Positions 1,658 through 10,976 of a DNA stretch of 10,976 nucleotides are shown one piece after another. Under the pieces are notes generated by a model. That model saw only the letters and a program-made list of their open reading frames with translations. It ran no database searches and was not told the DNA's origin. A program made the position numbers and the translations under genes. Each line of letters begins with the position of its first letter. The first letter of the stretch is position 1. This stretch comes from a virus: UHGV virus genome UHGV-0119342, one strand, 5' to 3'.

Positions 1658-2422
1658 TCAGTAGCGCTTGTTAGGATTCACAGAAAACTTCCGTAAAGCA
1701 TTACCCGACTTAAGCACCTTTGAAGCTTGCTCATTAGCTGAGGCTGTGAAGGTGCTCTCACCATTTTTAACGCTAACGCTCTTAGAGCACGTTACACGGG
1801 CTTTTAGCGCTTCATCTGATAACTCACTTGCCGAATAGCTAAAAAGCTCTTTACAGGTCAGCATAGGGCTTCCAAGGCTCGTTGTAGTGTTGCCAGTGTT
1901 CTTTTTACTGGTAGAACCGCCATCATTCGTGGTAGCGACCTTTCCAGTAGCTGCTGAAACATCAGTTTGCCCTACGATTGAACGAAATTCTACACCTTGG
2001 AAGGTCATCTGAATACGAAGACCATTAGCAATGGTATGCTCTTTACTCGCTTTAAACTGAGTAATGATACTATCAGTGATAGATATTCCATCTTTACAAA
2101 CAATAGTGATGATTTGCTTCTGGTCTCGCCATTGTTCAACCGTAGAAATAAAGGTCTCTACAAGTTGCCCCTGTCTGGTTAATAGAACTGAACCCGTCGA
2201 ATCAACCACTACAACACCGCTAATAGAGATGGTCTTAGGTGCTCTCTGAACATTATCAGTGATAGTTTGCCCCGATTGCATAGCCTGAGTTGTCACCATC
2301 ATCGGTGAGTCATAGTCCATCTGTTCAGTAGCTGTTAAGGCAAGAAAAGATTCTACATTATCTCTAAGGTGAAAATAGATACCATCTTTACCTGAGTATC
2401 TAATTTGCTTTGTGTCAAACAT
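1658..2422 (-). CDS. Hypothetical protein, possibly tail-associated (immediately downstream of the tape measure gene)
   Basis: 254-aa ORF, AGGA 9 nt upstream of ATG, Ser/Thr/Gly-rich C-terminal half. Functional guess from position only. Confidence 0.6.
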
Positions 2423-2441
2423 TGTTGTTATTCCTATTCTG

Positions 2442-2487
2442 TTAAGCGTGAGCTACGTGAAATCTAATTTTTGATGTTGGTATCTGC
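2442..2487 (-). promoter_or_regulatory. Conserved promoter-like element, copy A, about 20 nt upstream of the 254-aa gene start
   Basis: Minus-strand reading gcagataccaacatcaaaaattagatttcacgtagctcacgcttaa is about 70 percent identical to a 46-bp element upstream of the tape measure gene; contains a -10-like TAGATT after an A-tract, no canonical -35. Confidence 0.5.
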
Positions 2488-2553
2488 TCAGAAGAAATCA
2501 CGTAGCATTCGACTATTCATAGTTGAATCGTCATACTAGATAAAGATTAATAG

Positions 2554-2571
2554 ATTGCCATGTGTGGCAAT
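2554..2571 (-). terminator. Candidate hairpin 25 nt downstream of the tape measure stop
   Basis: Perfect 7-bp inverted repeat attgcca / tggcaat with 4-nt loop tgtg; AT-rich but not pure U tail on the minus strand. Weak terminator or attenuator. Confidence 0.3.
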
Positions 2572-2595
2572 AAATATTAGTAGTTCTAACATTGT

Positions 2596-4662
2596 TTATT
2601 CCTCTGGGTAAGCGGAGCTAATCAAGGTATCTTCCTGCATACGATTAATATGCGATGTGGTTCTTTCATCAATAACCTTTCCATCAAGTACCGTCTGAGT
2701 TGTGATATTGATTGTCTGAGGCTGAATATTTACTGACGGCTTGATAACCTTTAAATCTTGTGTGAATGTTTCCACTCGACCTTTCAGATTATTTAATGCT
2801 TCAGGTGAAAACTGTGGAACATCTTTTGATTTGCCATGAACCATAGCCCATAAAACAGCAGCTAAAGAGTTCATGTCACCAGTCAATGCTTGGTCTGTGG
2901 GTTCCACCTTTGACCTTACAACTTTGTCAATTGGATTATCTGACTTACTCATCTGACGTTCATAGAACGGTTTAACAATGGAGTTAATCACATCAGTTGC
3001 CATACCGACAATCATTACTTTGGTAATTGCATCAGCTACAGATAATTTTCCTTTACCACCTTCAACACTACCGGAACGTGAATTAATTCTTCCCGCTGCT
3101 GTATTTGCTACATTTCCAAGCATGGAAATAGCCCTAATTAAGTTCCAGATACCACCTACAGCACCAATACCAGACCTTACAGCGACAATACCAGCAAGTC
3201 CCTTTAATGCACTTAACAGGCCATTTGCGATACCATCAGCTACAGCTTTTTGAGTGTCATTTAATTCTCTGTAAGCAAGGGTCACTCTGTCAAAGAATCC
3301 CTGCACTCGGTAGCTAATCGTGGTTAAATCATCAATACCGTTTGACATGCTTTTCATCAGGTCGCCAAAATGTTCACCAAGATTTTTAGATTGACCACCT
3401 AGTGAATTAAGTAAATTAGTCAGTGACCTTGTAAAGTCTGTTAAACCTTCCTGTGAACCGTCGAACATTAAGGCCAGATTATTATTCCATGAATTAGAAA
3501 GGCGGCCTAACTGCGTCTGAGTAGAGTTAATAATCTTTTCCCATCCACCAGCTTTATCAATCATCCTTCCCATTTCAGCGGATACTTTAGGAAGAACATC
3601 TTTAGAAAGAACTTTACCGTTCTTCATAGCTGCATCTAATTGCTCGGTAGTCATCCCAAGGCTTCTGGCAAATAACTGGAAAGCACCTGCCATTCTGTCA
3701 CCTAATTGACCACGTAGCTCTTCAGCCTGAATCTTCCCTTTAGAAGCCATCTGCTCGAAAGCTTTCAGAATCCCGTTAATTTCATCAGTGCTTAAACCCA
3801 TTAGTCGGGATGTACCAATCACATTAGAAAATAAGGATTCTTTCTGGTCTGCATTCATATCACCAGCACCAGCGGAAAACTTAGCAAAGCTACTTAATGT
3901 TTCAATCTGGTCTACACCTGTATTATTAGCAAGATTCTTAACGAAGTCTGTAGCTCGTTTAGCGCCTTCATCGCCTAATACAAATTGTGCCGCTCGTTGT
4001 GATGCTTCTTTTTTCAGACCAATCTCCATAATCTTCCTATAAGCTTCTAAGGCTGTCTGAAAACTATAAATGGCTGTACCTGCTTTGATTGCACTTGTAG
4101 CTAATACATCTAAACCATTTGAAGCATTTTCACTGTGATTGTTTTTGCTGGTGGTCTTATTAAACTTAGAAAGTGTTTCACGTAGATTTTGATTTAACTT
4201 TGCTAACTCACGATTAAAAGCTTCGTTCCCAAGTGTCTTGGATTTACCGCTTAAGCTGTAATACTGGCTTCTAAAATACTTCTCAAGTAGAGGATTAAAG
4301 TCACGAAGCTTGCTCATATTCACGCTATGCGCTGCTGTGATTGCTCTGTTGCCGCTAATTCGTGGTTGCCTTGCTGCTTTAACAGTTTCTTCAACCTGAG
4401 TTTTGAACTTAAAGACCTTCGTAGATTTGGCTCTTTCCTCCAGCTTATTAAAAGTCTGGTTAATCTTCTTTTCCATATTCCCCAAAGAGGCTGTTAAATC
4501 CTTATCCATGCTCTTTGGGTTAACTTTAAATGCTCTATTCAAATTGCGTTCAATTCTTTGTGCTGACTGCAAAGCTGCCTTTTCAACTCTTTGCAGTCCC
4601 TTAATAACGTTTTCATTGAAGCCTAGCTCAACGATAAAACTATCAACTGTGAATTTGCTCAT
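2596..4662 (-). CDS. Phage tail tape measure protein
   Basis: 688-aa ORF. Coiled-coil-like N-terminal region, central segment resembling the conserved tape-measure domain (GKIQAEELRGQLGDRMAGAFQLFARSLGMTTEQLDAAMKNGKV), Gly-rich hydrophobic segments near the C-terminus. AGAGGTG 10 nt upstream of ATG. Confidence 0.8.
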   Translation of the reverse strand: MSKFTVDSFIVELGFNENVIKGLQRVEKAALQSAQRIERNLNRAFKVNPKSMDKDLTASLGNMEKKINQTFNKLEERAKSTKVFKFKTQVEETVKAARQPRISGNRAITAAHSVNMSKLRDFNPLLEKYFRSQYYSLSGKSKTLGNEAFNRELAKLNQNLRETLSKFNKTTSKNNHSENASNGLDVLATSAIKAGTAIYSFQTALEAYRKIMEIGLKKEASQRAAQFVLGDEGAKRATDFVKNLANNTGVDQIETLSSFAKFSAGAGDMNADQKESLFSNVIGTSRLMGLSTDEINGILKAFEQMASKGKIQAEELRGQLGDRMAGAFQLFARSLGMTTEQLDAAMKNGKVLSKDVLPKVSAEMGRMIDKAGGWEKIINSTQTQLGRLSNSWNNNLALMFDGSQEGLTDFTRSLTNLLNSLGGQSKNLGEHFGDLMKSMSNGIDDLTTISYRVQGFFDRVTLAYRELNDTQKAVADGIANGLLSALKGLAGIVAVRSGIGAVGGIWNLIRAISMLGNVANTAAGRINSRSGSVEGGKGKLSVADAITKVMIVGMATDVINSIVKPFYERQMSKSDNPIDKVVRSKVEPTDQALTGDMNSLAAVLWAMVHGKSKDVPQFSPEALNNLKGRVETFTQDLKVIKPSVNIQPQTINITTQTVLDGKVIDERTTSHINRMQEDTLISSAYPEE

Positions 4663-4779: not shown

Positions 4780-4821
4780 AAAAAAAGGGAGAGCTACCGA
4801 TGTCACTCGATAATCTCTCCC
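4780..4821 (-). terminator. Rho-independent terminator (minus strand) between the 71-aa gene and the tape measure gene
   Basis: Perfect 7-bp GC-rich stem GGGAGAG / CTCTCCC (4787-4793 / 4815-4821), 21-nt loop, followed on the minus strand by a run of 7 U (4780-4786). Confidence 0.55.
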
Positions 4822-4871
4822 CGTACTATAGATTCGATAGAACCTATCTCATATACCCAACCAATTCTTTT

Positions 4872-6155: not shown

Positions 6156-6184
6156 ATTATGTCATACTTAAGGTTATTTGTCAA
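6156..6184 (-). promoter_or_regulatory. Candidate sigma70-type promoter (minus strand) for the 234-aa / 71-aa genes
   Basis: Minus-strand -35 TTGACA (6179-6184), 17-bp spacer, -10 CATAAT (6156-6161); implies a leader of about 330 nt. Confidence 0.4.
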
Positions 6185-6462
6185 CAGCCTTTTAACAGAT
6201 TGGTAACATCAATTTCTATTTACTGTGTTGCCTACCCAGCAACCAACAAATAAGCCAAGCAACGTCCAAGCAATTATTAAGCCCATTAGTGAACCCTCAC
6301 AGAATCCGTAACCAAAATATTGTCGCCGTACAGGATTGTCACAGCACCTTTCAAAAATTGCTCTGGGGAAATACTGTATTTGTTCGTTTGCTCGATAACC
6401 AATCTTTTCATGTCGCTGTCTGCAATTGGTAGCATCATTCGAGGCTCGTTAAACTCCACCGA

Positions 6463-6609
6463 CTAAATAAAGTCAGAGATGTTTTCTGCATTATCAGCCA
6501 TCAGCTTTAGTAATTTATCAAAATTAATTGCGATACCTGCATCACTGAAAGCCTGAATCATCAGAGCGGTGTCGTTATCAACGAAAATCTGTAATTCGTA
6601 ATTGCTCAT
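6463..6609 (-). CDS. Small acidic hypothetical protein (48 aa, not in the supplied ORF track)
   Basis: Hand translation MSNYELQIFVDNDTALMIQAFSDAGIAINFDKLLKLMADNAENISDFI; AAGGAG 9 nt upstream of ATG. Confidence 0.4.
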   Translation of the reverse strand: MSNYELQIFVDNDTALMIQAFSDAGIAINFDKLLKLMADNAENISDFI

Positions 6610-6764
6610 TTTTAAAATCTCCTTTTTACCAGACCTCCTCAATCGCTCTGTAACGAGCTAAACAGTCTTTTTCAGGGGTAGCCTGTACAGTGGTATTACC
6701 CACCCTAAAATAAGATAGTTTTTTGCGTTAGAATGCGATTGAGAGCGTCTGAGAAGCTGTTTTT

Positions 6765-7052
6765 CTAATTTCTCTTAAAGTCTCGGACTTGCATAAGATT
6801 TTTTGGTCTGGTATCGGCTCTGTTACCATTTCGATGGATAATTTGCTTATTGGATTGATAGCCATGATAAAGGAACCAGACAACATATTTCACGTAGAAA
6901 GTATATCGGCCTATATTAAATGTTTTGTTGCCGTAGTCGTCGGTATTTATCGTGACTGACTCTCCATCAGACCAGCACAGGGAATCACTGGATTCATCAT
7001 AGATAAGGTGTTCTGTAAAATATCGTCTAACATCTTCATGCCAAGGTTTCAT
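6765..7052 (-). CDS. Truncated HNH-like protein, paralogue of the N-terminal part of the 9540-10064 endonuclease
   Basis: 95-aa ORF, GAGGAGG 4 nt upstream of ATG. Shares KPWHEDVRRY with KAWPEEVIRY and VVWFLYHG...IIHRNGNRADTRPKNL with VIFYLYHG...IDHIDGDPLNNAISNL, but ends before the final HNH Asn and has no AP2 domain. Confidence 0.65.
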   Translation of the reverse strand: MKPWHEDVRRYFTEHLIYDESSDSLCWSDGESVTINTDDYGNKTFNIGRYTFYVKYVVWFLYHGYQSNKQIIHRNGNRADTRPKNLMQVRDFKRN

Positions 7053-7264
7053 AAAACCTCCTCACCCCAATAACCTAATTCAATCTTGTGACGCTCAAAC
7101 CATTCTGGCTTGACTGCTGCTTTCAGTACTTCATTTGGGCCAATGGCTTTAATGAAAATATCTTTTGAGTTATGGATGTCACCGAATCCGTTTCCTTTAA
7201 TCAGGAGGTCGGAGATGTAGCGAATCATTTTATCTGTGTGGTATTCAAAGGTAACGCATAGCAT
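7049..7264 (-). CDS. Hypothetical protein
   Basis: 71-aa ORF, GGAGG 4 nt upstream of ATG; start overlaps the stop of the upstream gene by 1 nt, and its stop overlaps the start of the 95-aa gene by 4 nt. Confidence 0.55.
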   Translation of the reverse strand: MLCVTFEYHTDKMIRYISDLLIKGNGFGDIHNSKDIFIKAIGPNEVLKAAVKPEWFERHKIELGYWGEEVL

Positions 7265-7542
7265 TAAACCTCCAGAGACAGCTTGTGAATTTTAAGACTC
7301 AATAGACGGGCAATATCAATCTTAAAGCCGTTAAGCGCCTTCAAAGTAGCTAAAGCGTCCTGACTAATTCGGATGTGTTTACGACCTTTAGAGACTGGAT
7401 ATTTCAGTAAATCCGACTCAGTAACCTCTTTAGCAATTGCAAGCTGCATAACAGTTTGATGAGGGAGGTTAGTTGTCTGTTTAATTCGGGTAAGCTCGTG
7501 AAAGGCTTCTTCTGAAATACGGGTCAAAGTGTGTTTCTTCAT
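7264..7542 (-). CDS. Ribbon-helix-helix (CopG/Arc-like) DNA-binding protein, putative regulator
   Basis: 92-aa ORF, AGAGGA 8 nt upstream of ATG. N-terminus MKKHTLTRISEEAFHELTRIKQTTNLPHQTVMQLAIAKEV fits the RHH strand-helix-helix pattern; a second similar segment (HIRISQDALATLKAL...) may be a tandem repeat. Confidence 0.55.
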   Translation of the reverse strand: MKKHTLTRISEEAFHELTRIKQTTNLPHQTVMQLAIAKEVTESDLLKYPVSKGRKHIRISQDALATLKALNGFKIDIARLLSLKIHKLSLEV

Positions 7543-8100
7543 TTAAAATTCCTCTGTAACTAAATACGGGTCAAACTCAAAGTCTGGTTGCTCGTTTTCC
7601 ATTGGCTCAATATTTCCAACGGCAATATGATGCTCAACAACACCAATTAACTTTGCGCACATTACAGCAAGCAATGCACAATATTTATCGCTTGGTAATT
7701 CGTAGCTAAGTCTGGTTGCTTGTCGCTGAAGATGATTTGTCACGGTGGCTGAGTTAATTTCATCAAGGTTCTTTAGGAGATAAAATAGCTTCTTGTTGTA
7801 TTTCGGGTGACCTTCACCTCTACAGAATCCAATGAAAATATCATCAAGCTTACTTGGTAATTGTTCGTAGCTGTCAAAGTTAGCCAGATAATTTTTGATG
7901 CTGTTCTTTGTTGTTTTGCGTACTGACATATAACGACTCCTCGGTGTAATTGCCCGAATTACTTCGTCAATGCCTTTGCGCTCTGCTCTGGTGAACTTGG
8001 GTACTTCGTGACTGGTGGGGGAGTTTGTGTAAGCGTAGGAGTTGTGCTTGTTGCGTTCTCTTGATGCCTGAAGCATCGCTCTAAATTCTCTGTCGTTCAT
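7543..8100 (-). CDS. Hypothetical protein, first gene of the leftward operon
   Basis: 185-aa ORF, GAGGG 11 nt upstream of ATG; stop codon directly abuts the next start (TAAATG). Acidic/aromatic C-terminal tail (DFEFDPYLVTEEF). No recognisable domain. Confidence 0.6.
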   Translation of the reverse strand: MNDREFRAMLQASRERNKHNSYAYTNSPTSHEVPKFTRAERKGIDEVIRAITPRSRYMSVRKTTKNSIKNYLANFDSYEQLPSKLDDIFIGFCRGEGHPKYNKKLFYLLKNLDEINSATVTNHLQRQATRLSYELPSDKYCALLAVMCAKLIGVVEHHIAVGNIEPMENEQPDFEFDPYLVTEEF

Positions 8101-8151
8101 TCATGTTCTGACCCTCATAAGATGTTATTATTCTGTTAACTTATATATACA

Positions 8152-8180
8152 ATCTTAGCAGTTTCAAAGACTAATGTCAA
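8152..8180 (-). promoter_or_regulatory. Candidate sigma70-type promoter for the leftward operon
   Basis: Minus-strand -35 TTGACA (8175-8180), 17-bp spacer, -10 TAAGAT (8152-8157); back-to-back with the plus-strand promoter. Confidence 0.3.
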
Positions 8181-8187
8181 GCATTTT

Positions 8188-8217
8188 TTAACATTTCATT
8201 AACATCTGTGGTATAAT
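8188..8217 (+). promoter_or_regulatory. Candidate strong sigma70-type promoter with extended -10
   Basis: -35 TTAACA (8188-8193), 18-bp spacer, TGg + TATAAT (8209-8217); points toward the small ORF at 8348. Confidence 0.5.
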
Positions 8218-8347: not shown

Positions 8348-8524
8348 ATGGTAAATCTCCCTCCTGAGCTGGGGTCACCTGATGTATGGGCTGGTGGAGG
8401 TGTTGGGCTGATTGCAGGCCTGCTACTTCGCTATGTCCTCGTCAGAGTGCTTGTTGTCTTTAAACTGTTCGGTCGTACATGGACGCTTGACCTTAAGGAT
8501 AATGACCACACAGACCCCCGTTAA
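8348..8524 (+). CDS. Small single-pass membrane protein (58 aa from the ATG; the ORF track begins at a TTG at 8330)
   Basis: AGGA 6 nt upstream of the ATG at 8348; hydrophobic segment WAGGGVGLIAGLLLRYVLVRVLVV; locally GC-richer than its surroundings. Confidence 0.45.
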   Translation: MVNLPPELGSPDVWAGGGVGLIAGLLLRYVLVRVLVVFKLFGRTWTLDLKDNDHTDPR

Positions 8525-8538
8525 ACTCCCTCCAAAAC

Positions 8539-8570
8539 CCCCTGTACGAGATAGTATAGGGGTGTCTTTA
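8539..8570 (+). terminator. Candidate terminator after the small membrane-protein ORF
   Basis: Imperfect 8-bp stem cccctgta / tatagggg (one mismatch), 8-nt loop, followed by tgtcttta. Confidence 0.3.
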
Positions 8571-9453
8571 GCATTTTGTGCTATCTATTAAAAAATAGCT
8601 TGACAGAACAGGAAAGCTGTATCTATCAAGTATTCACCTCTCTGACAGTAATTTCTAAAAGTTCTTATTTTTCAATAAGTTGTAATTAGCCAATATATAA
8701 GGCTGTCCAGTACCTTCACAGAAAAACTTCAGAAGCCTTCTTAATCAATCCACTAAGCGAGAGAGAGCGATAACCCCAGAGAGGGAAGCTCCCTTCTTAA
8801 AAACCTTCTTGACAATCTTTACAGGCCTTGTTCAAGGTAATCGCAATAGTTTTTCTTCCCTCGGTTTCCCGTGTTCCTCGGTTTGCCTATTGAGGTTTGA
8901 AAGACCTCTGTAACTTCCCTCTTAGACAGGGAAGAATAATATTGGTGACACAAGCGAAGCGCCCCTCTAAAAAGATTTTTTAGCTATTTTGTTTAAAAGC
9001 ACATCAAACGATACATTTTATTGATTTAGGTCAAAGACAAAAGCATTGACAAAATGGTAAGATTGTTCACATGACCTTACTTAACAGATTCTTAAGAGCT
9101 TTGAAGCGGCCTATTTAACAAGGTCACTACCTCTGGTCTTATCGTTCCCTCTCTTCTTGGTAGTTCTGTTAAGTATCTTTTCAGGTATCTCTTACAGTCA
9201 CTGTTAAGATGATACTCTCCCTTCGGGTTATATCGTTACTTTCTCTCCCGTTAAACACTCCTTCCTAACTATCTACATAATCACTTCTAAGAATCTTACA
9301 AGGTAATATCCAGACCTCTTATAGCTGACCTGATACAGAAACATTACAGGCATACTCTCTAGGTTCTGTGTAGTTCCCTTGGTGGGAATAGATGCTCCTA
9401 CAATAAGAGCATCATTAATCTATATAGTCCTCTTCCGAGAACTTAATAGTTTT

Positions 9454-9539: not shown

Positions 9540-10064
9540 ATGGTGACTAGGTATACCAAGGCATGGCCTGAAGAAGTTATAAGATACATCAATGAAAATA
9601 TTACAGCAGATTTTGAATCTGGAACATTATTTAGAAATGGTGTAAAAATCGAGGGTTCACTTGTAAATCCTAAACCAAGACAATATCTGGCTTTTGGTTG
9701 TCGGATTAATGGTAAGTTCAGAATACTTAAGGTGCATCAGGTTATTTTCTATCTATATCATGGTAAACAAGCTAAACTATGGATTGACCATATAGATGGT
9801 GACCCGCTAAATAATGCTATTAGCAATCTTCGCGAGGTTACCAAAGAGCAGAATCAGGCAAACATGATACCCAGAAAGAAAACAAAATCAGGTTACAAGG
9901 GAGTACACCCAAGAGTGGATAACAAGGGGTTCTGGGCTACAATACGCTGTAATGGAAAATCTCATTATCTGGGTCAGTTTAATACAGCAGAAGAAGCTGC
10001 AAAAGCCTATGATGCTGCATCACTGGAATTGCATGGTAAATATGGACACAGGAATTTTAGCTGA
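9540..10064 (+). CDS. Free-standing homing endonuclease, NUMOD4-like N-terminus + HNH nuclease + AP2 DNA-binding domain
   Basis: 174-aa ORF, AAGGA 5 nt upstream of ATG. HNH motif VHQVIFYLYHG...IDHIDGDPLNNAISNLREVTKEQNQAN; AP2-like C-terminus YKGVHPRVDNKGFWATIRCNGKSHYLGQFNTAEEAAKAYDAAS. Confidence 0.85.
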   Translation: MVTRYTKAWPEEVIRYINENITADFESGTLFRNGVKIEGSLVNPKPRQYLAFGCRINGKFRILKVHQVIFYLYHGKQAKLWIDHIDGDPLNNAISNLREVTKEQNQANMIPRKKTKSGYKGVHPRVDNKGFWATIRCNGKSHYLGQFNTAEEAAKAYDAASLELHGKYGHRNFS

Positions 10065-10074
10065 TAGTTAATAA

Positions 10075-10104
10075 AGACCTGACATAAACTTGTCGATAGG
10101 TCTG
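10075..10104 (+). terminator. Candidate stem-loop downstream of the HNH endonuclease gene
   Basis: agacctgaca ... tgtcgataggtct: 10 paired positions with a 3-nt bulge, AT-rich tail (gattaaagtttat); weak as an intrinsic terminator. Confidence 0.3.
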
Positions 10105-10896
10105 ATTAAAGTTTATACAGTGATTTTTCATCTTCTAATTTTTTTATAAAAATCGTAGTACCCCCTCTACATTCCCCTTCACCGATAATCTTAAAAAATA
10201 TCTACACTCAATTGATGGCTGTTAAGTACCCCAGATTCACGATATAGCACCCCCTTTGCAAAAGCAGTTAAAATATCTATAACCAATTATTGACTTTCTT
10301 CATAGCATCTGTTTACCTCCACCTCAAAAAAACCTTCATCACATTTCACAGCATCTATCAAGAAGATTTAACCTATCAATAGCTGTAACATTTTATAGTC
10401 CTGTGAAGTCCTCCCCAGTTTTCTCTGTAACAGACACAAACTTCTGTGACCTTATGTGTCAATGACTTATAAGACATGCTCTCAAGGTGCTGTATAGCCT
10501 CTTATCTTCCAATACATAAAACTCTTATAAATCAGTACTGATATGTATACAGTTCGTTTTTAACATAATAGCTGTTTTACGCACTAAGAAGCATCTACGT
10601 AGATTCTGTATAGAGATTAAGATGTCTCTAAGTGATTTTTTAAGAGGAGATACGAAGGAACTATAACCATCACTTCATAACTTTCACGTAGGTAGCTATT
10701 AAGTAGGTTGATAGTCACTTTGAGGGAATATTGATAGTGACCAACTGCATAGACACCGTTATATAGCCCTGTATATAGCACTATATGTAGTGTCTGGAGA
10801 GGAACGACTAACACGATACAGTTTACCCTGAAAAGAGACTTCACAGATTCTCTATATATTTCAATAAGTTATGATAAAAAGAGACTATATCAATAC

Positions 10897-10955
10897 TGCA
10901 TAGAATCTGTGTAGGATTGCATAGATACTTGGAAAAATGCCTTTAAATTGCATAG
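10897..10955. repeat. Helically phased TGyrTAG repeats (iteron-like or operator-array-like)
   Basis: TGCATAG at 10897, TGTGTAG at 10908, TGCATAG at 10918 and TGCATAG at 10949; spacings 11, 10 and 31 bp. The last two copies sit in a longer direct repeat ATTGCATAG(A/G)TAC. Confidence 0.45.
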
Positions 10956-10976
10956 GTACTAACCTGTTTATGTCCT

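Follow-up and report, generated by a model that had tools for sequence, protein, structure and literature searches.

A leftward four-gene operon in an Escherichia coli island related to Felix O1-type phages: a candidate helper-linked DNA-binding control module

A tightly coupled operon of four genes reads leftward in the 10,976-nt stretch of viral genome UHGV-0119342 analyzed here (hereafter, the window). We tentatively interpret this operon as the core DNA-binding control module of a Felix O1-type satellite island, linked to the helper phage, rather than as island cargo. Its first two genes belong to the island core, lie first behind the best-conserved promoter of the island and are preceded by a repeat that also occurs in the presumed helper; a core regulatory or DNA-transaction module fits these three observations better than cargo does.

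The operon and the island that carries it

The window represents nearly the whole of an ~11.9-kb E. coli chromosomal island inserted in yecE. In NZ_CP098217 it is flanked by the two halves of yecE and is 100% identical except for a 5-bp gap; a related island type is inserted between tonB and yciI. The operon locus is present in 384 of 5,426 complete E. coli genomes (about 7%), O157:H7 and O55:H7 strains included. The island carries a large serine recombinase, although in this copy the integrase, intact in NZ_CP098217, is frameshifted, and a pseudogene is present.

The tail genes point to a particular phage group. A Dit-like tail gene shares 74% DNA identity with Felixounavirus, the tape-measure protein aligns from end to end with its Ounavirinae counterparts at about 30% identity, and the tape-measure gene and the tail gene that follows it are in the same order as in the phage. 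In those window proteins that were scanned, Pfam and PHROG revealed no capsid, terminase, portal or replication gene, which argues for a satellite-like element, as originally predicted. The element has its own recombinase and a defined insertion site (the split yecE), and combines helper-derived genes and cis sites with the lack of an autonomous virion gene set. Judged from sequence, the island most likely parasitizes Felix O1-like (Ounavirinae) myophages as a satellite. The window gave no match to an Rfam family and no tRNA. A search of the literature available to us retrieved no Felix O1 or yecE satellite; the nearest elements (PMC10055350) belong to a different family.

The four open reading frames of the operon occupy 8100–7543, 7542–7264, 7264–7049 and 7052–6765, all on the minus strand, and encode proteins of 185, 92, 71 and 95 aa. 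Read from the sequence, the 185/92 junction (...TTTTAAATG) is a TAAATG in which the stop abuts the start, with GAGGA 8 nt upstream; the 92/71 junction (GGAGGTTTAATG) is a 1-nt overlap and the 71/95 junction (GAGGAGGTTTTATGA) a 4-nt overlap. The 185-aa gene has a GAGGG ribosome-binding site 11 nt from its annotated ATG. The predicted arrangement of four tightly coupled leftward genes with good ribosome-binding sites is thus borne out, but the range 7049–8100 initially given for them covers only three, the HNH gene being located at 6765–7052. All four genes have dN/dS values of 0.03–0.30 in every pairwise comparison between islands. Together with the presence of the locus in so many genomes, these values argue that all four are real genes under purifying selection.

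Each of the five E. coli islands that were inspected closely, at the yecE and the tonB-yciI site alike, carries genes 1 and 2. The distant island L004, from another genus, has in common with the window only Int (47% identical), the tape-measure protein, the 185-aa family (34% identical) and a cargo Dam methylase. The 185-aa family is the only non-structural, non-integrase, non-cargo protein common to distantly related islands. The variable cargo of the island lies at the end opposite the operon, beside the att site; within the operon only the 71-aa slot varies, apart from the HNH insertion.

The products of genes 1 to 3

Gene 1 (7543–8100, minus strand) encodes the 185-aa island-core protein. 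Its N-terminal part is basic and is followed by a helical core (about residues 61–165) and a conserved acidic-aromatic C-terminal tail with the motif PDFEFD.Y..E.F (tail peptide PDFEFDPYLVTEEF). Its AF2 model has an overall pLDDT of 72.6, rising to 80–90 in the core, and no known fold is recognized in this model. At least 1,000 contigs, Shigella sonnei among them, carry the gene, which is under purifying selection (dN/dS 0.20–0.30), with alleles only 61–65% identical between some islands. All 1,088 close homologs are unnamed. An exhaustive HMMER search of 1.84 billion representatives gave only 22 matches, namely the protein's own cluster, fragments and four distant unnamed proteins, and structure matches in BFVD are confined to uncharacterized lytic-phage proteins. 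Family members occur in lytic-phage contigs with no integrase seen nearby; a tblastn search of 50,697 phage records yielded one weak match, in an Aeromonas phage.

Gene 2 (7264–7542, minus strand) was predicted to encode a ribbon-helix-helix (RHH) protein. The AF2 model of the 92-aa product (pLDDT 90.4, pTM 0.82) supports and refines this assignment: two consecutive strand-helix-helix units, with strands at residues 4–10 and 54–60, pack against each other as a pseudo-dimer within a single chain. The two units fill the protein completely and leave no toxin-binding extension. Gene 2 is thus modeled as a monomeric double-RHH protein, predicted to bind DNA, of the TraY/DndE structural type. This likeness holds at the level of the fold only, because no curated family model is reached: Pfam DndE scores 14 bits against a cutoff of 25 (E 0.066), TIGR03184 stays below threshold (19.5 against 71.85 bits) and TraY gives no match. 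TraY of the F-plasmid relaxosome, DndE and tandem RHH proteins of the AvtR/VirC2 type likewise show no significant sequence similarity to the 92-aa protein, and they differ from it in context, which here is a phage-related island with no relaxase, dnd or T-DNA. RHH alleles with differences at about 40% of their positions still agree in the β-strand residues (HTLTR, HIRI), and dN/dS is 0.09–0.17. A tblastn search of the 50,697 phage records found no match.

Gene 3 (7049–7264, minus strand) occupies the variable slot. Its 71-aa product has 31 homologs, all at least 73% identical, and no detectable relatives beyond the island family; dN/dS is 0.09–0.19. In L008, L009 and 127 genomes the same position holds a 128-aa protein with a C-terminal HTH; gene 3 would be an exchangeable small partner. 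Searches of the 185-, 92- and 71-aa proteins in Pfam, PHROGs, PADLOC, NCBIfam and PDB sequences gave nothing above threshold; in keeping with the original prediction, standard homology searches leave the 185-aa and the 71-aa protein without an assigned function.

Promoter dyads and the phage repeat region

The operon was expected to be transcribed from a divergent promoter region, and a near-consensus pair of back-to-back promoters is found there. A promoter scan located the σ70-like operon promoter P_left (TTGACA, 17 nt, TG-n-TAAGAT) at 8152–8180 on the minus strand, 45 nt upstream of the 185-aa start; its divergent partner (TTAACA-18-TATAAT) lies at 8188–8217 on the plus strand. The hexamers and spacer length of P_left are invariant in seven islands, and the ~130-bp divergent region is almost invariant in these islands, whose coding DNA falls to ~70% identity. 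P_left is the best-conserved promoter of the island, and genes 1 and 2 are the first behind it.

An operator-like dyad, TGTTAATGAAATGTTA (8189–8204, minus strand), is located 8 bp upstream of the P_left −35 element and overlaps the −35 element (TTAACA) of the divergent promoter; its pentamers are invariant, whereas the spacer varies between islands. A second dyad, TGTTATTATTCTGTTA (8123–8138, plus strand), falls within the 5′ leader and has the opposite orientation to the upstream one. The third, TGTTACCAATCTGTTA (6193–6208), belongs to P_mid (6156–6208, minus strand), where it precedes TTGACA-17-CATAAT (6184–6156); P_mid drives the genes that lie downstream of it, for a 234-aa protein, a 71-aa protein, the tape-measure protein and the baseplate protein. 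The dyad-to-promoter distance is the same at P_mid and P_left, and the sequences of both read GATGTTA-N6-TGTTAAA-N6-TTGACA. Each of six islands contains exactly three TGTTA-N6-TGTTA dyads at fixed positions, with invariant pentamers and variable spacers, against 0.16 expected per window from shuffles. As the motif was first noticed in this window, the within-window enrichment is a post hoc statistic; the comparisons across islands and with phages are independent of that discovery. A search for the exact composite of promoter and dyad gave nine IMG/VR stretches, eight of them copies of the present island. In L004 and L024, neither of which resembles the window in nucleotide sequence, the 185-family gene has this dyad in its promoter as well. 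The RHH gene, however, is missing from both, a point against the control scheme proposed below. No such repeats were found in the regions searched upstream of phage homologs of the 185-aa family (L003, L010), which leaves a general iteron-binding role for this family unsupported. Reading CTGTTAAC...ACAA as a LexA box was rejected on spacing, by inspection of the sequence.

The repeat may tie the island to its presumed helper. Felixounavirus genomes have a gene-free region, which holds their terminal repeats, that is filled with the same 11-bp-phased TGTTA repeat. The 2 kb with this region in phage mio account for 12 of 14 dyads and 26 of 117 YTGTTAR motifs. A gene-free region of about 1 kb adjoins the operon, and a gene-free segment at 8791–9213 (plus strand), with three CTGTTAAG repeats, is homologous to the phage region. 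Thirty-five Felixounavirus records match its blocks (8791–8823, 9080–9098, 9115–9181 and 9156–9213) at about 80–95% identity, and the phage counterpart of 9115–9181 and the neighboring blocks is a gene-free region of ~1.6 kb. Between islands, the segment is more strongly conserved than the coding genes. Terminal repeats are reported for Felix O1-type phages (PMC3185647; PMC11737134); our assignment of the region draws on these general statements and on the duplicated ends of one GenBank record, ECP2307, whose first 592 bp equal its last 592 bp and cover the blocks matched by the window. The island carries a condensed homologous copy of the Felixounavirus terminal-repeat region. The operon proteins are not copies of helper proteins, as hmmsearch with the island profiles gave no match among all phage mio ORFs.

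The occurrence of one repeat at the operon promoter and in the genome-end region of the phage suggests a switch that is coupled to the phage. We infer that one or both DNA-binding products would occupy the TGTTA-N6-TGTTA dyads on either side of their own promoter and next to the P_mid −35 element, and would thereby damp two near-consensus promoters as long as the island is integrated. The terminal-repeat region of the helper contains dozens of copies of the same 11-bp-phased repeat; incoming, replicating helper DNA would then compete for the protein and release the island promoters. The same proteins could also act on the helper terminal region and on the island copy (8791–9213), for replication or packaging. 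In its complete form, in which the island senses helper DNA and not a helper protein, the phage repeats titrate the repressor (the 185-aa protein, the double RHH protein or both), and the repressor then redirects replication or packaging from the helper terminal repeats and the island copy, this scheme is improbable. Manipulation of the helper by the DNA-binding proteins of the operon, another part of the original prediction, is possible.

By analogy, SaPI Stl and P4/P2 would be parallels, in that a switch coupled to the helper goes with a divergent promoter pair beside the first operon. SaPI Stl responds to proteins of its helper, and P2 Ogr and P4 delta are zinc-finger activators; the island link to its helper would instead be a shared DNA repeat, and the island proteins appear unrelated to all three. 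If the operon is such a switch, it would exemplify recognition of a helper by a DNA repeat common to both partners and would hint at what the gene-free terminal region does in Ounavirinae genomes. It may also explain strain differences in susceptibility to Felix O1-type phages, the classic typing and biocontrol phages of Salmonella and E. coli. The complete scheme, if true, would describe a new Ounavirinae satellite family with an induction switch that works by decoy titration, and a new fold for DNA binding.

The dyads upstream of the −35 elements occupy a position that is also used by activators, so regulation could be positive and exerted by a helper protein. A Felixounavirus repeat-binding protein could switch on P_left and P_mid through the island dyads, and the operon products would then be not island regulators but effectors directed at the helper, which might block or divert its replication or packaging at the terminal region; P2/P4 cross-activation is a precedent. 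The location of the promoter dyads at about −44 to −59 is typical of activator sites, the repeat belongs overwhelmingly to the phage (more than 25 copies in its gene-free region versus a handful in the island), and the motif is kept in island lineages with a different small DNA-binding gene (RHH, HTH or winged HTH). We nevertheless consider such activation rather unlikely. P_left and P_mid already combine a consensus −35 with a good extended −10 and should need no activator, the phage has no dyad at its own promoters elsewhere (only 2 of its 14 dyads lie outside the gene-free region), and the inverted dyad downstream of the P_left start fits repression or looping better. A doubtful alternative is a split replication initiator, in which the 185-aa protein and the small DNA-binding protein recognize iteron-like repeats in the gene-free region as an origin, recruit the host or helper replisome via the acidic, Phe-terminated tail and autoregulate like a plasmid Rep. 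The Pfam and PHROG scan left no other candidate replication gene in the island, the adjoining ~1-kb gene-free region with CTGTTAAG repeats is conserved beyond the genes, and the invariant tail of the 185-aa protein resembles partner-binding tails of the SSB and T7 gp2.5 type. By eye, the L024 gene downstream of the 185-aa homolog has the look of a winged helix of RepA_N type; PLE and E. coli satellites are described as using RepA_N initiators whose DNA-binding domains can be exchanged (PMC10055350). However, the window contains no DnaA box, no tandem iteron array and no clear AT-rich unwinding element, no fold or sequence similarity to any Rep family was detected, and the gene-free region is nearly identical between islands whose 185-aa alleles are so divergent.

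Two further roles are less likely. Serine-integrase directionality factors are small, diverse and without common folds, no other candidate for one is annotated, and both island lineages combine a 185-aa family member with the serine recombinase; the 185-aa or the RHH protein might accordingly serve as directionality factor or excision regulator of this enzyme. We regard this as very unlikely, as 185-aa homologs reside in lytic-phage contigs away from any integrase seen, the gene lies on the far side of the island from int and the promoter dyads would be left unexplained. In PLE, moreover, the helper supplies the directionality factor (PMC6002521). The original prediction had pointed to a peripheral accessory cassette for functions such as anti-defence or superinfection exclusion. 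Such a cassette could also act in abortive infection or as a toxin-antitoxin pair, with the RHH protein as antitoxin or regulator and a small neighbor as effector. Small proteins without assigned function and a variable third position would suit such a cassette, but genes 1 and 2 are core and not variable, and the cargo maps to the opposite end. The operon yielded no PADLOC, Pfam or NCBIfam match to any toxin or defence protein, no toxin family matched the 185-, 71- or 95-aa proteins as a type II system would require, and the RHH protein is a self-contained double domain, all of which makes an accessory role highly improbable.

Known satellites and a mobile HNH gene

Set beside PLE, the Vibrio cholerae satellite of the lytic myophage ICP1 (PMC6002521; PMC10055350), the island is likewise small, has a large serine recombinase at one end and contains long gene-free stretches. 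Both also carry nuclease genes related to homing endonucleases of the helper, which for the island is a presumed lytic myophage. The comparison is one of descriptions rather than of proteins, and it sets the two elements apart as well: the island encodes a tape-measure and a baseplate/hub protein, has another host and helper, and has no recognized RepA_N initiator. With no RepA_N or Rep match in Pfam, NCBIfam or PHROGs, the large serine recombinase alone is shared in kind, and the island does not classify as a PLE. Nor does it classify as a PICI or cfPICI, which use a tyrosine integrase in place of the serine recombinase; tyrosine integrase, alpA, pri-rep, terS and capsid genes were undetected among the window proteins scanned.

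Putative satellites of E. coli and its relatives described by Barth et al. 2023 (PMC10055350) resemble the island in encoding a tape-measure protein and one baseplate component while other tail genes are absent, and in having cis or DNA-binding modules that mirror sequences of the matching phages. They also encode major capsid and decoration proteins and RepA_N, none of which the island has, and mostly use a tyrosine integrase beside tRNA genes, whereas the island sits in yecE or between tonB and yciI. The phage matched by the island, Felixounavirus, is a further difference. Only the tape-measure and baseplate proteins of their set are present, which places the island outside these tape-measure satellites, as described there.

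Gene 4 (6765–7052, minus strand) was correctly predicted to be HNH-like: its 95-aa product matches Pfam HNH_3 (PF13392) with 34.3 bits against a cutoff of 24.8 (E 1.8e-8), as well as PHROGs 99 and 959 ('HNH endonuclease'). The statement that only the RHH-like protein has a recognizable fold was therefore nearly right, failing for this protein alone. The 95-aa protein aligns with the nuclease half of the 174-aa HNH-AP2 protein of the island (29% identity, E 9e-8); in the HNH motif (IIHRNGNRADTRPKNL versus IDHIDGDPLNNAISNL) the His and the last Asn are kept, and the middle NN reads DT. It ends after the nuclease domain with no attached DNA-binding domain, whereas the paralog at 9540–10064 has an AP2 domain. 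A dN/dS of 0.03 indicates strong purifying selection and argues that the protein is probably functional. A tblastn search of the 50,697 phage records found one match, in a Sulfitobacter phage.

The gene shows the distribution of a mobile insertion, with presence or absence at a fixed site and co-converted flanks. A precise 277-bp HNH segment (6790–7066) is missing from L007, L008 and L009 and is present in 226 genomes, at least 95% identical in all, so that the gene is nearly identical across otherwise diverged islands. Identity in the flanks drops from 96–99% to 55–73% at about position 7500, a gradient that matches the pattern described in PMC10055350. These comparisons mark gene 4 as a probable selfish, homing-type HNH insertion that carried its flanks along. 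It illustrates cleanly, in nature, how an HNH gene of minimal size (277 bp) spreads between islands and drags flanking DNA with it. Free-standing HNH_3 homing endonucleases of the I-HmuI type share the domain and the presence/absence polymorphism; the 95-aa protein differs from them in consisting of the nuclease half only, without AP2 or another DNA-binding domain, and in having D-T at the middle Asn position. Between the HNH gene and the next gene lies an imperfect hairpin of ~115 nt (6640–6757, minus strand; RNA folding energy −49.4 kcal/mol, z −4.1), copies of which are found elsewhere in the related islands L002 and L008.

A coupled operon built from two modules

Four minus-strand ORFs encode proteins of 185 aa (8100-7543), 92 aa (7542-7264), 71 aa (7264-7049) and 95 aa (7052-6765). 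The original prediction of a tightly coupled leftward operon is borne out: read from the sequence, the genes meet at TAAATG, TAATG and ATGA junctions preceded by ribosome-binding sites (GAGGA, GGAGG or GAGGAGG), behind a near-consensus sigma-70 promoter, P_left (TTGACA-17-TG-n-TAAGAT; 8180-8152, minus strand), which faces a divergent plus-strand promoter (8188-8217). The proposed range of 7049-8100 is too short, however, as the HNH gene falls outside it. All four genes are under purifying selection (dN/dS 0.03-0.30 between island copies), and the locus occurs in 384 of 5,426 complete E. coli genomes; in 249 of these, at least 80% of the 1.5-kb query is covered. In an alignment of seven islands, the ~130 bp upstream of the operon are nearly invariant while the genes have diverged to ~70%. 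Identity to the O157-type island is 96–99% around the HNH gene and 85–97% through the 92-aa gene, and falls abruptly to 55–73% at ~7500. The operon is accordingly mosaic, combining the 185-aa gene as one module with the 92-aa/71-aa/HNH block as the other.

For the 185-aa protein, 1,088 close homologs were found in Escherichia, Shigella and Salmonella, every one unnamed; HMMER, run exhaustively over 1.84 billion representatives, returned 22 hits in all, four of them distant full-length proteins. One distant homolog, P0228, is encoded in an island in yecE of another genus; another, P0232, is the product of the first gene of a long operon on a phage-like contig with terminase and portal genes. 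The protein combines a basic N-terminal part with an invariant acidic-aromatic C-terminal tail (PDFEFD.Y..E.F), and no DNA-binding fold was recognized in it. In the distant yecE island, the 185-family gene lies between genes for a 146-aa protein with a GIY-YIG-looking motif and a 97-aa HTH protein; a nuclease gene also adjoins the family in phage contig L003, where an HNH gene follows. Upstream, a seven-codon mini-ORF (ATGAATGAACGACAGAGAATTTAG; 8081-8104, minus strand) starts 4 nt before the 185-aa start, out of frame, and has a better spacing from GAGGG than does the annotated ATG. Seven islands share ATGAATGA unchanged, which may reflect translational coupling or control.

The RHH-like call for the second gene was right and can be sharpened: the confident AF2 model of the 92-aa protein (pLDDT 90.4) contains two strand-helix-helix units in one chain, a predicted monomeric pseudo-dimer. 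Proteins related to it recognize specific DNA sites or nicks, and some of them bend the DNA. The modeled fold resembles that of TraY/DndE-type proteins, although the 92-aa protein does not pass their sequence models. Its homologs are confined to Enterobacteriaceae, with at least 68% identity, and the putative DNA-contacting strands are conserved; the gene is absent from the distant islands. All 31 homologs of the 71-aa protein show 73% identity or more, and searches including Pfam assigned the protein neither family nor fold; in 127 genomes a 128-aa protein unrelated to it, with an HTH at the C-terminus, occupies its position.

The HNH gene is mobile. Its 95-aa product scores above the Pfam HNH_3 threshold and is the counterpart of the nuclease half of the island's 174-aa HNH-AP2 protein, making it a family member without a DNA-binding domain. 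The gene sits within a 277-bp segment (6790-7066) that three related islands (L007, L008, L009) lack and 226 genomes carry, at 95% identity or more in every one, in contrast to the neighboring 185-aa gene, whose DNA differs by up to ~30%. The near-identical segment and the gradient of flank identity are the signature expected of a homing-type nuclease gene that spread with co-conversion of its flanks.

Dyads shared with Felix O1-type phages

TGTTA-N6-TGTTA dyads flank P_left on both sides. One lies 8 bp upstream of the −35 element and overlaps the −35 of the divergent promoter; the second, inverted, is in the 5' leader. P_mid (6184-6156, minus strand), the promoter heading the tail-gene operon, has a third dyad as far upstream of its −35 as P_left does, and P_left and P_mid share the layout GATGTTA-N6-TGTTAAA-N6-TTGACA. 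In each of six islands these three dyads, and no others, are present; their pentamers do not vary and their spacers do. The expected number is 0.16 per window; the motif was first spotted in the window itself, so enrichment there is post hoc. The distant islands L004 and L024 have the same dyad within the promoter of their 185-family gene, despite lacking DNA similarity to the window. The dyad accompanies the 185-aa family across lineages, and the small DNA-binding gene is exchanged (RHH, HTH or winged HTH).

Independently of the dyads, when the right half of the window was compared by blastn with 50,697 phage records, only Felixounaviruses matched. All 35 matching records align at 9115-9181, where the phage side has no annotated gene, and the colinear blocks 8791-8823, 9080-9098, 9115-9181 and 9156-9213 match the phages' ~1.6-kb gene-free region; a further block (4819-4853) is homologous to this gene-free, terminal-repeat-containing region. 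The best-kept core of the blocks reads TTAACA.GGTCACTA.CTCTGGT.T.ATCGTTCCCT. The phage region is dense in YTGTTAR repeats in 11-bp phase and, in phage mio, holds 12 of the genome's 14 dyads and 26 of its 117 YTGTTAR motifs. The first 592 bp of the ECP2307 record equal its last 592 bp, matched blocks included, and terminal repeats have been reported for Felix O1-type phages (PMC3185647; PMC11737134). The duplicated ends of this one record and the two papers argue that the region very probably contains the phage genome ends. Judged by homology, then, the island carries a condensed copy of the terminal region of its presumed helper. Blocks 8791-9213 and 4819-4853 are a candidate packaging or replication cis site taken from that phage. 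The terminal-region repeat is reused at both promoters driving the island's leftward genes, as operator-like dyads identical to it. No counterpart of the 185-aa or the 92-aa protein was found in the phage.

A second stretch without genes (10064-10976) abounds in AGAWTCTGTRTAG and CTATATA motifs, some of them arranged as palindromes (10595-10613, 10839-10857, 10896-10914). The gene-free region of the phage is likewise enriched for CTATATAG-type repeats.

A possible control module

All functional statements here are computational. Genes 1 and 2, behind the strong and conserved P_left, have core status in the island. The likeliest reading, if somewhat short of probable, is that the operon is the island's control module. 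Its products would act as control proteins that bind the TGTTA dyads and throttle P_left and P_mid while the island is integrated; coupling to helper DNA could arise through competition for the repeats or through action on the terminal-region copy. Either the 185-aa or the RHH protein may be the binder: the former follows the dyad between lineages but shows no DNA-binding fold, and the latter has a suitable fold but no gene in the distant islands. Alternatively, a helper protein could bind the dyads and activate the operon, whose products would then be effectors.

Other explanations place the operon's role elsewhere: it might be a split replication initiator, supply an excision factor, or constitute an accessory module, as originally guessed, or a toxin-antitoxin module. 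By itself the operon is moderately interesting to phage-satellite specialists; the shared-repeat link to Felix O1-type phages makes it directly testable.

The island around the operon

The window covers almost all of a ~11.9-kb island that splits yecE and differs from NZ_CP098217 only by a 5-bp deletion (GTAAA) at 1509, which frameshifts the integrase C-terminus (467 instead of 507 aa). The large serine recombinase (125-1528) is followed by a Dit-like "baseplate" gene with 74% DNA identity to Felixounavirus genes and a tape-measure gene whose product best matches Ounavirinae tape-measure proteins (~30% identity, full length). In Felixounaviruses the Dit-like homolog immediately follows the tape-measure gene, so the island retains a two-gene slice of the phage tail module. 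Among the window proteins scanned, neither Pfam nor PHROG gave a hit for a capsid, terminase, portal or replication gene. The layout is that of a phage satellite, and Felix O1-like phages are the presumed helper. The island does not fit the defining gene sets of PICI/cfPICI, PLE or the tape-measure-encoding satellites of PMC10055350. The last, a different E. coli family carrying MCP, decoration protein, RepA_N, tape-measure protein and baseplate hub, are the nearest elements described; we found no literature description of a satellite like this one.

The tail genes (1658-4662, minus strand) encode a tape-measure protein of 688 aa, versus ~740 aa in Felix O1-type phages; altered tail length, DNA delivery and interference with tail assembly are possible roles for two tail parts in a 12-kb element. 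A sister island type lies between tonB and yciI. The distant yecE island (L004/L005 8100-19900; MAG GCA_002454735) has only the integrase (47% identity), tape-measure protein (22%), 185-aa family (34%) and a cargo Dam methylase in common with the window island.

Between the tape-measure gene and the operon are a 71-aa gene, a 234-aa gene and a ~108-aa gene without family assignment. The last is intact in L002, L008 and L009; in the window an internal stop splits it into 59-aa and 57-aa ORFs (6286-6642, minus strand), and RefSeq calls it a pseudogene. With this pseudogene and the frameshifted integrase, the window copy may be immobile and no longer excise. A 25-codon ORF (6209-6286, minus strand) whose ATG overlaps the stop codon before it encodes the hydrophobic peptide MGLIIAWTLLGLFVGCWVGNTVNRN; the stretch aligns across five islands and is unannotated. 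An imperfect palindrome of ~115 nt (6640-6757; RNA fold −49 kcal/mol, z −4.1), without an Rfam match, recurs in related islands (L002 11320-11423 and three L008 sites) in both orientations and in leaders of different genes, and may be a small mobile or regulatory hairpin.

Beyond the operon, ~1.4 kb contain a single small ORF, for a 58-aa single-pass membrane protein (8348-8524, plus strand; WP_000247740, annotated in some islands) read from the divergent promoter, with a terminator-like hairpin downstream (8539-8562); roles as a toxin, a holin-like protein or an exclusion protein are possible. Next come a complete HNH_3 + AP2 homing-endonuclease-type gene (9540-10064, plus strand), replaced in other islands by a small serine recombinase or Dam methylase, and variable cargo adjoining the other half of yecE. 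Past the window, the att-proximal end holds differing unannotated genes without Pfam hits (L001 14001-14834; L002 14108-15028; L007 13021-14765) and looks like a cargo or defense slot.
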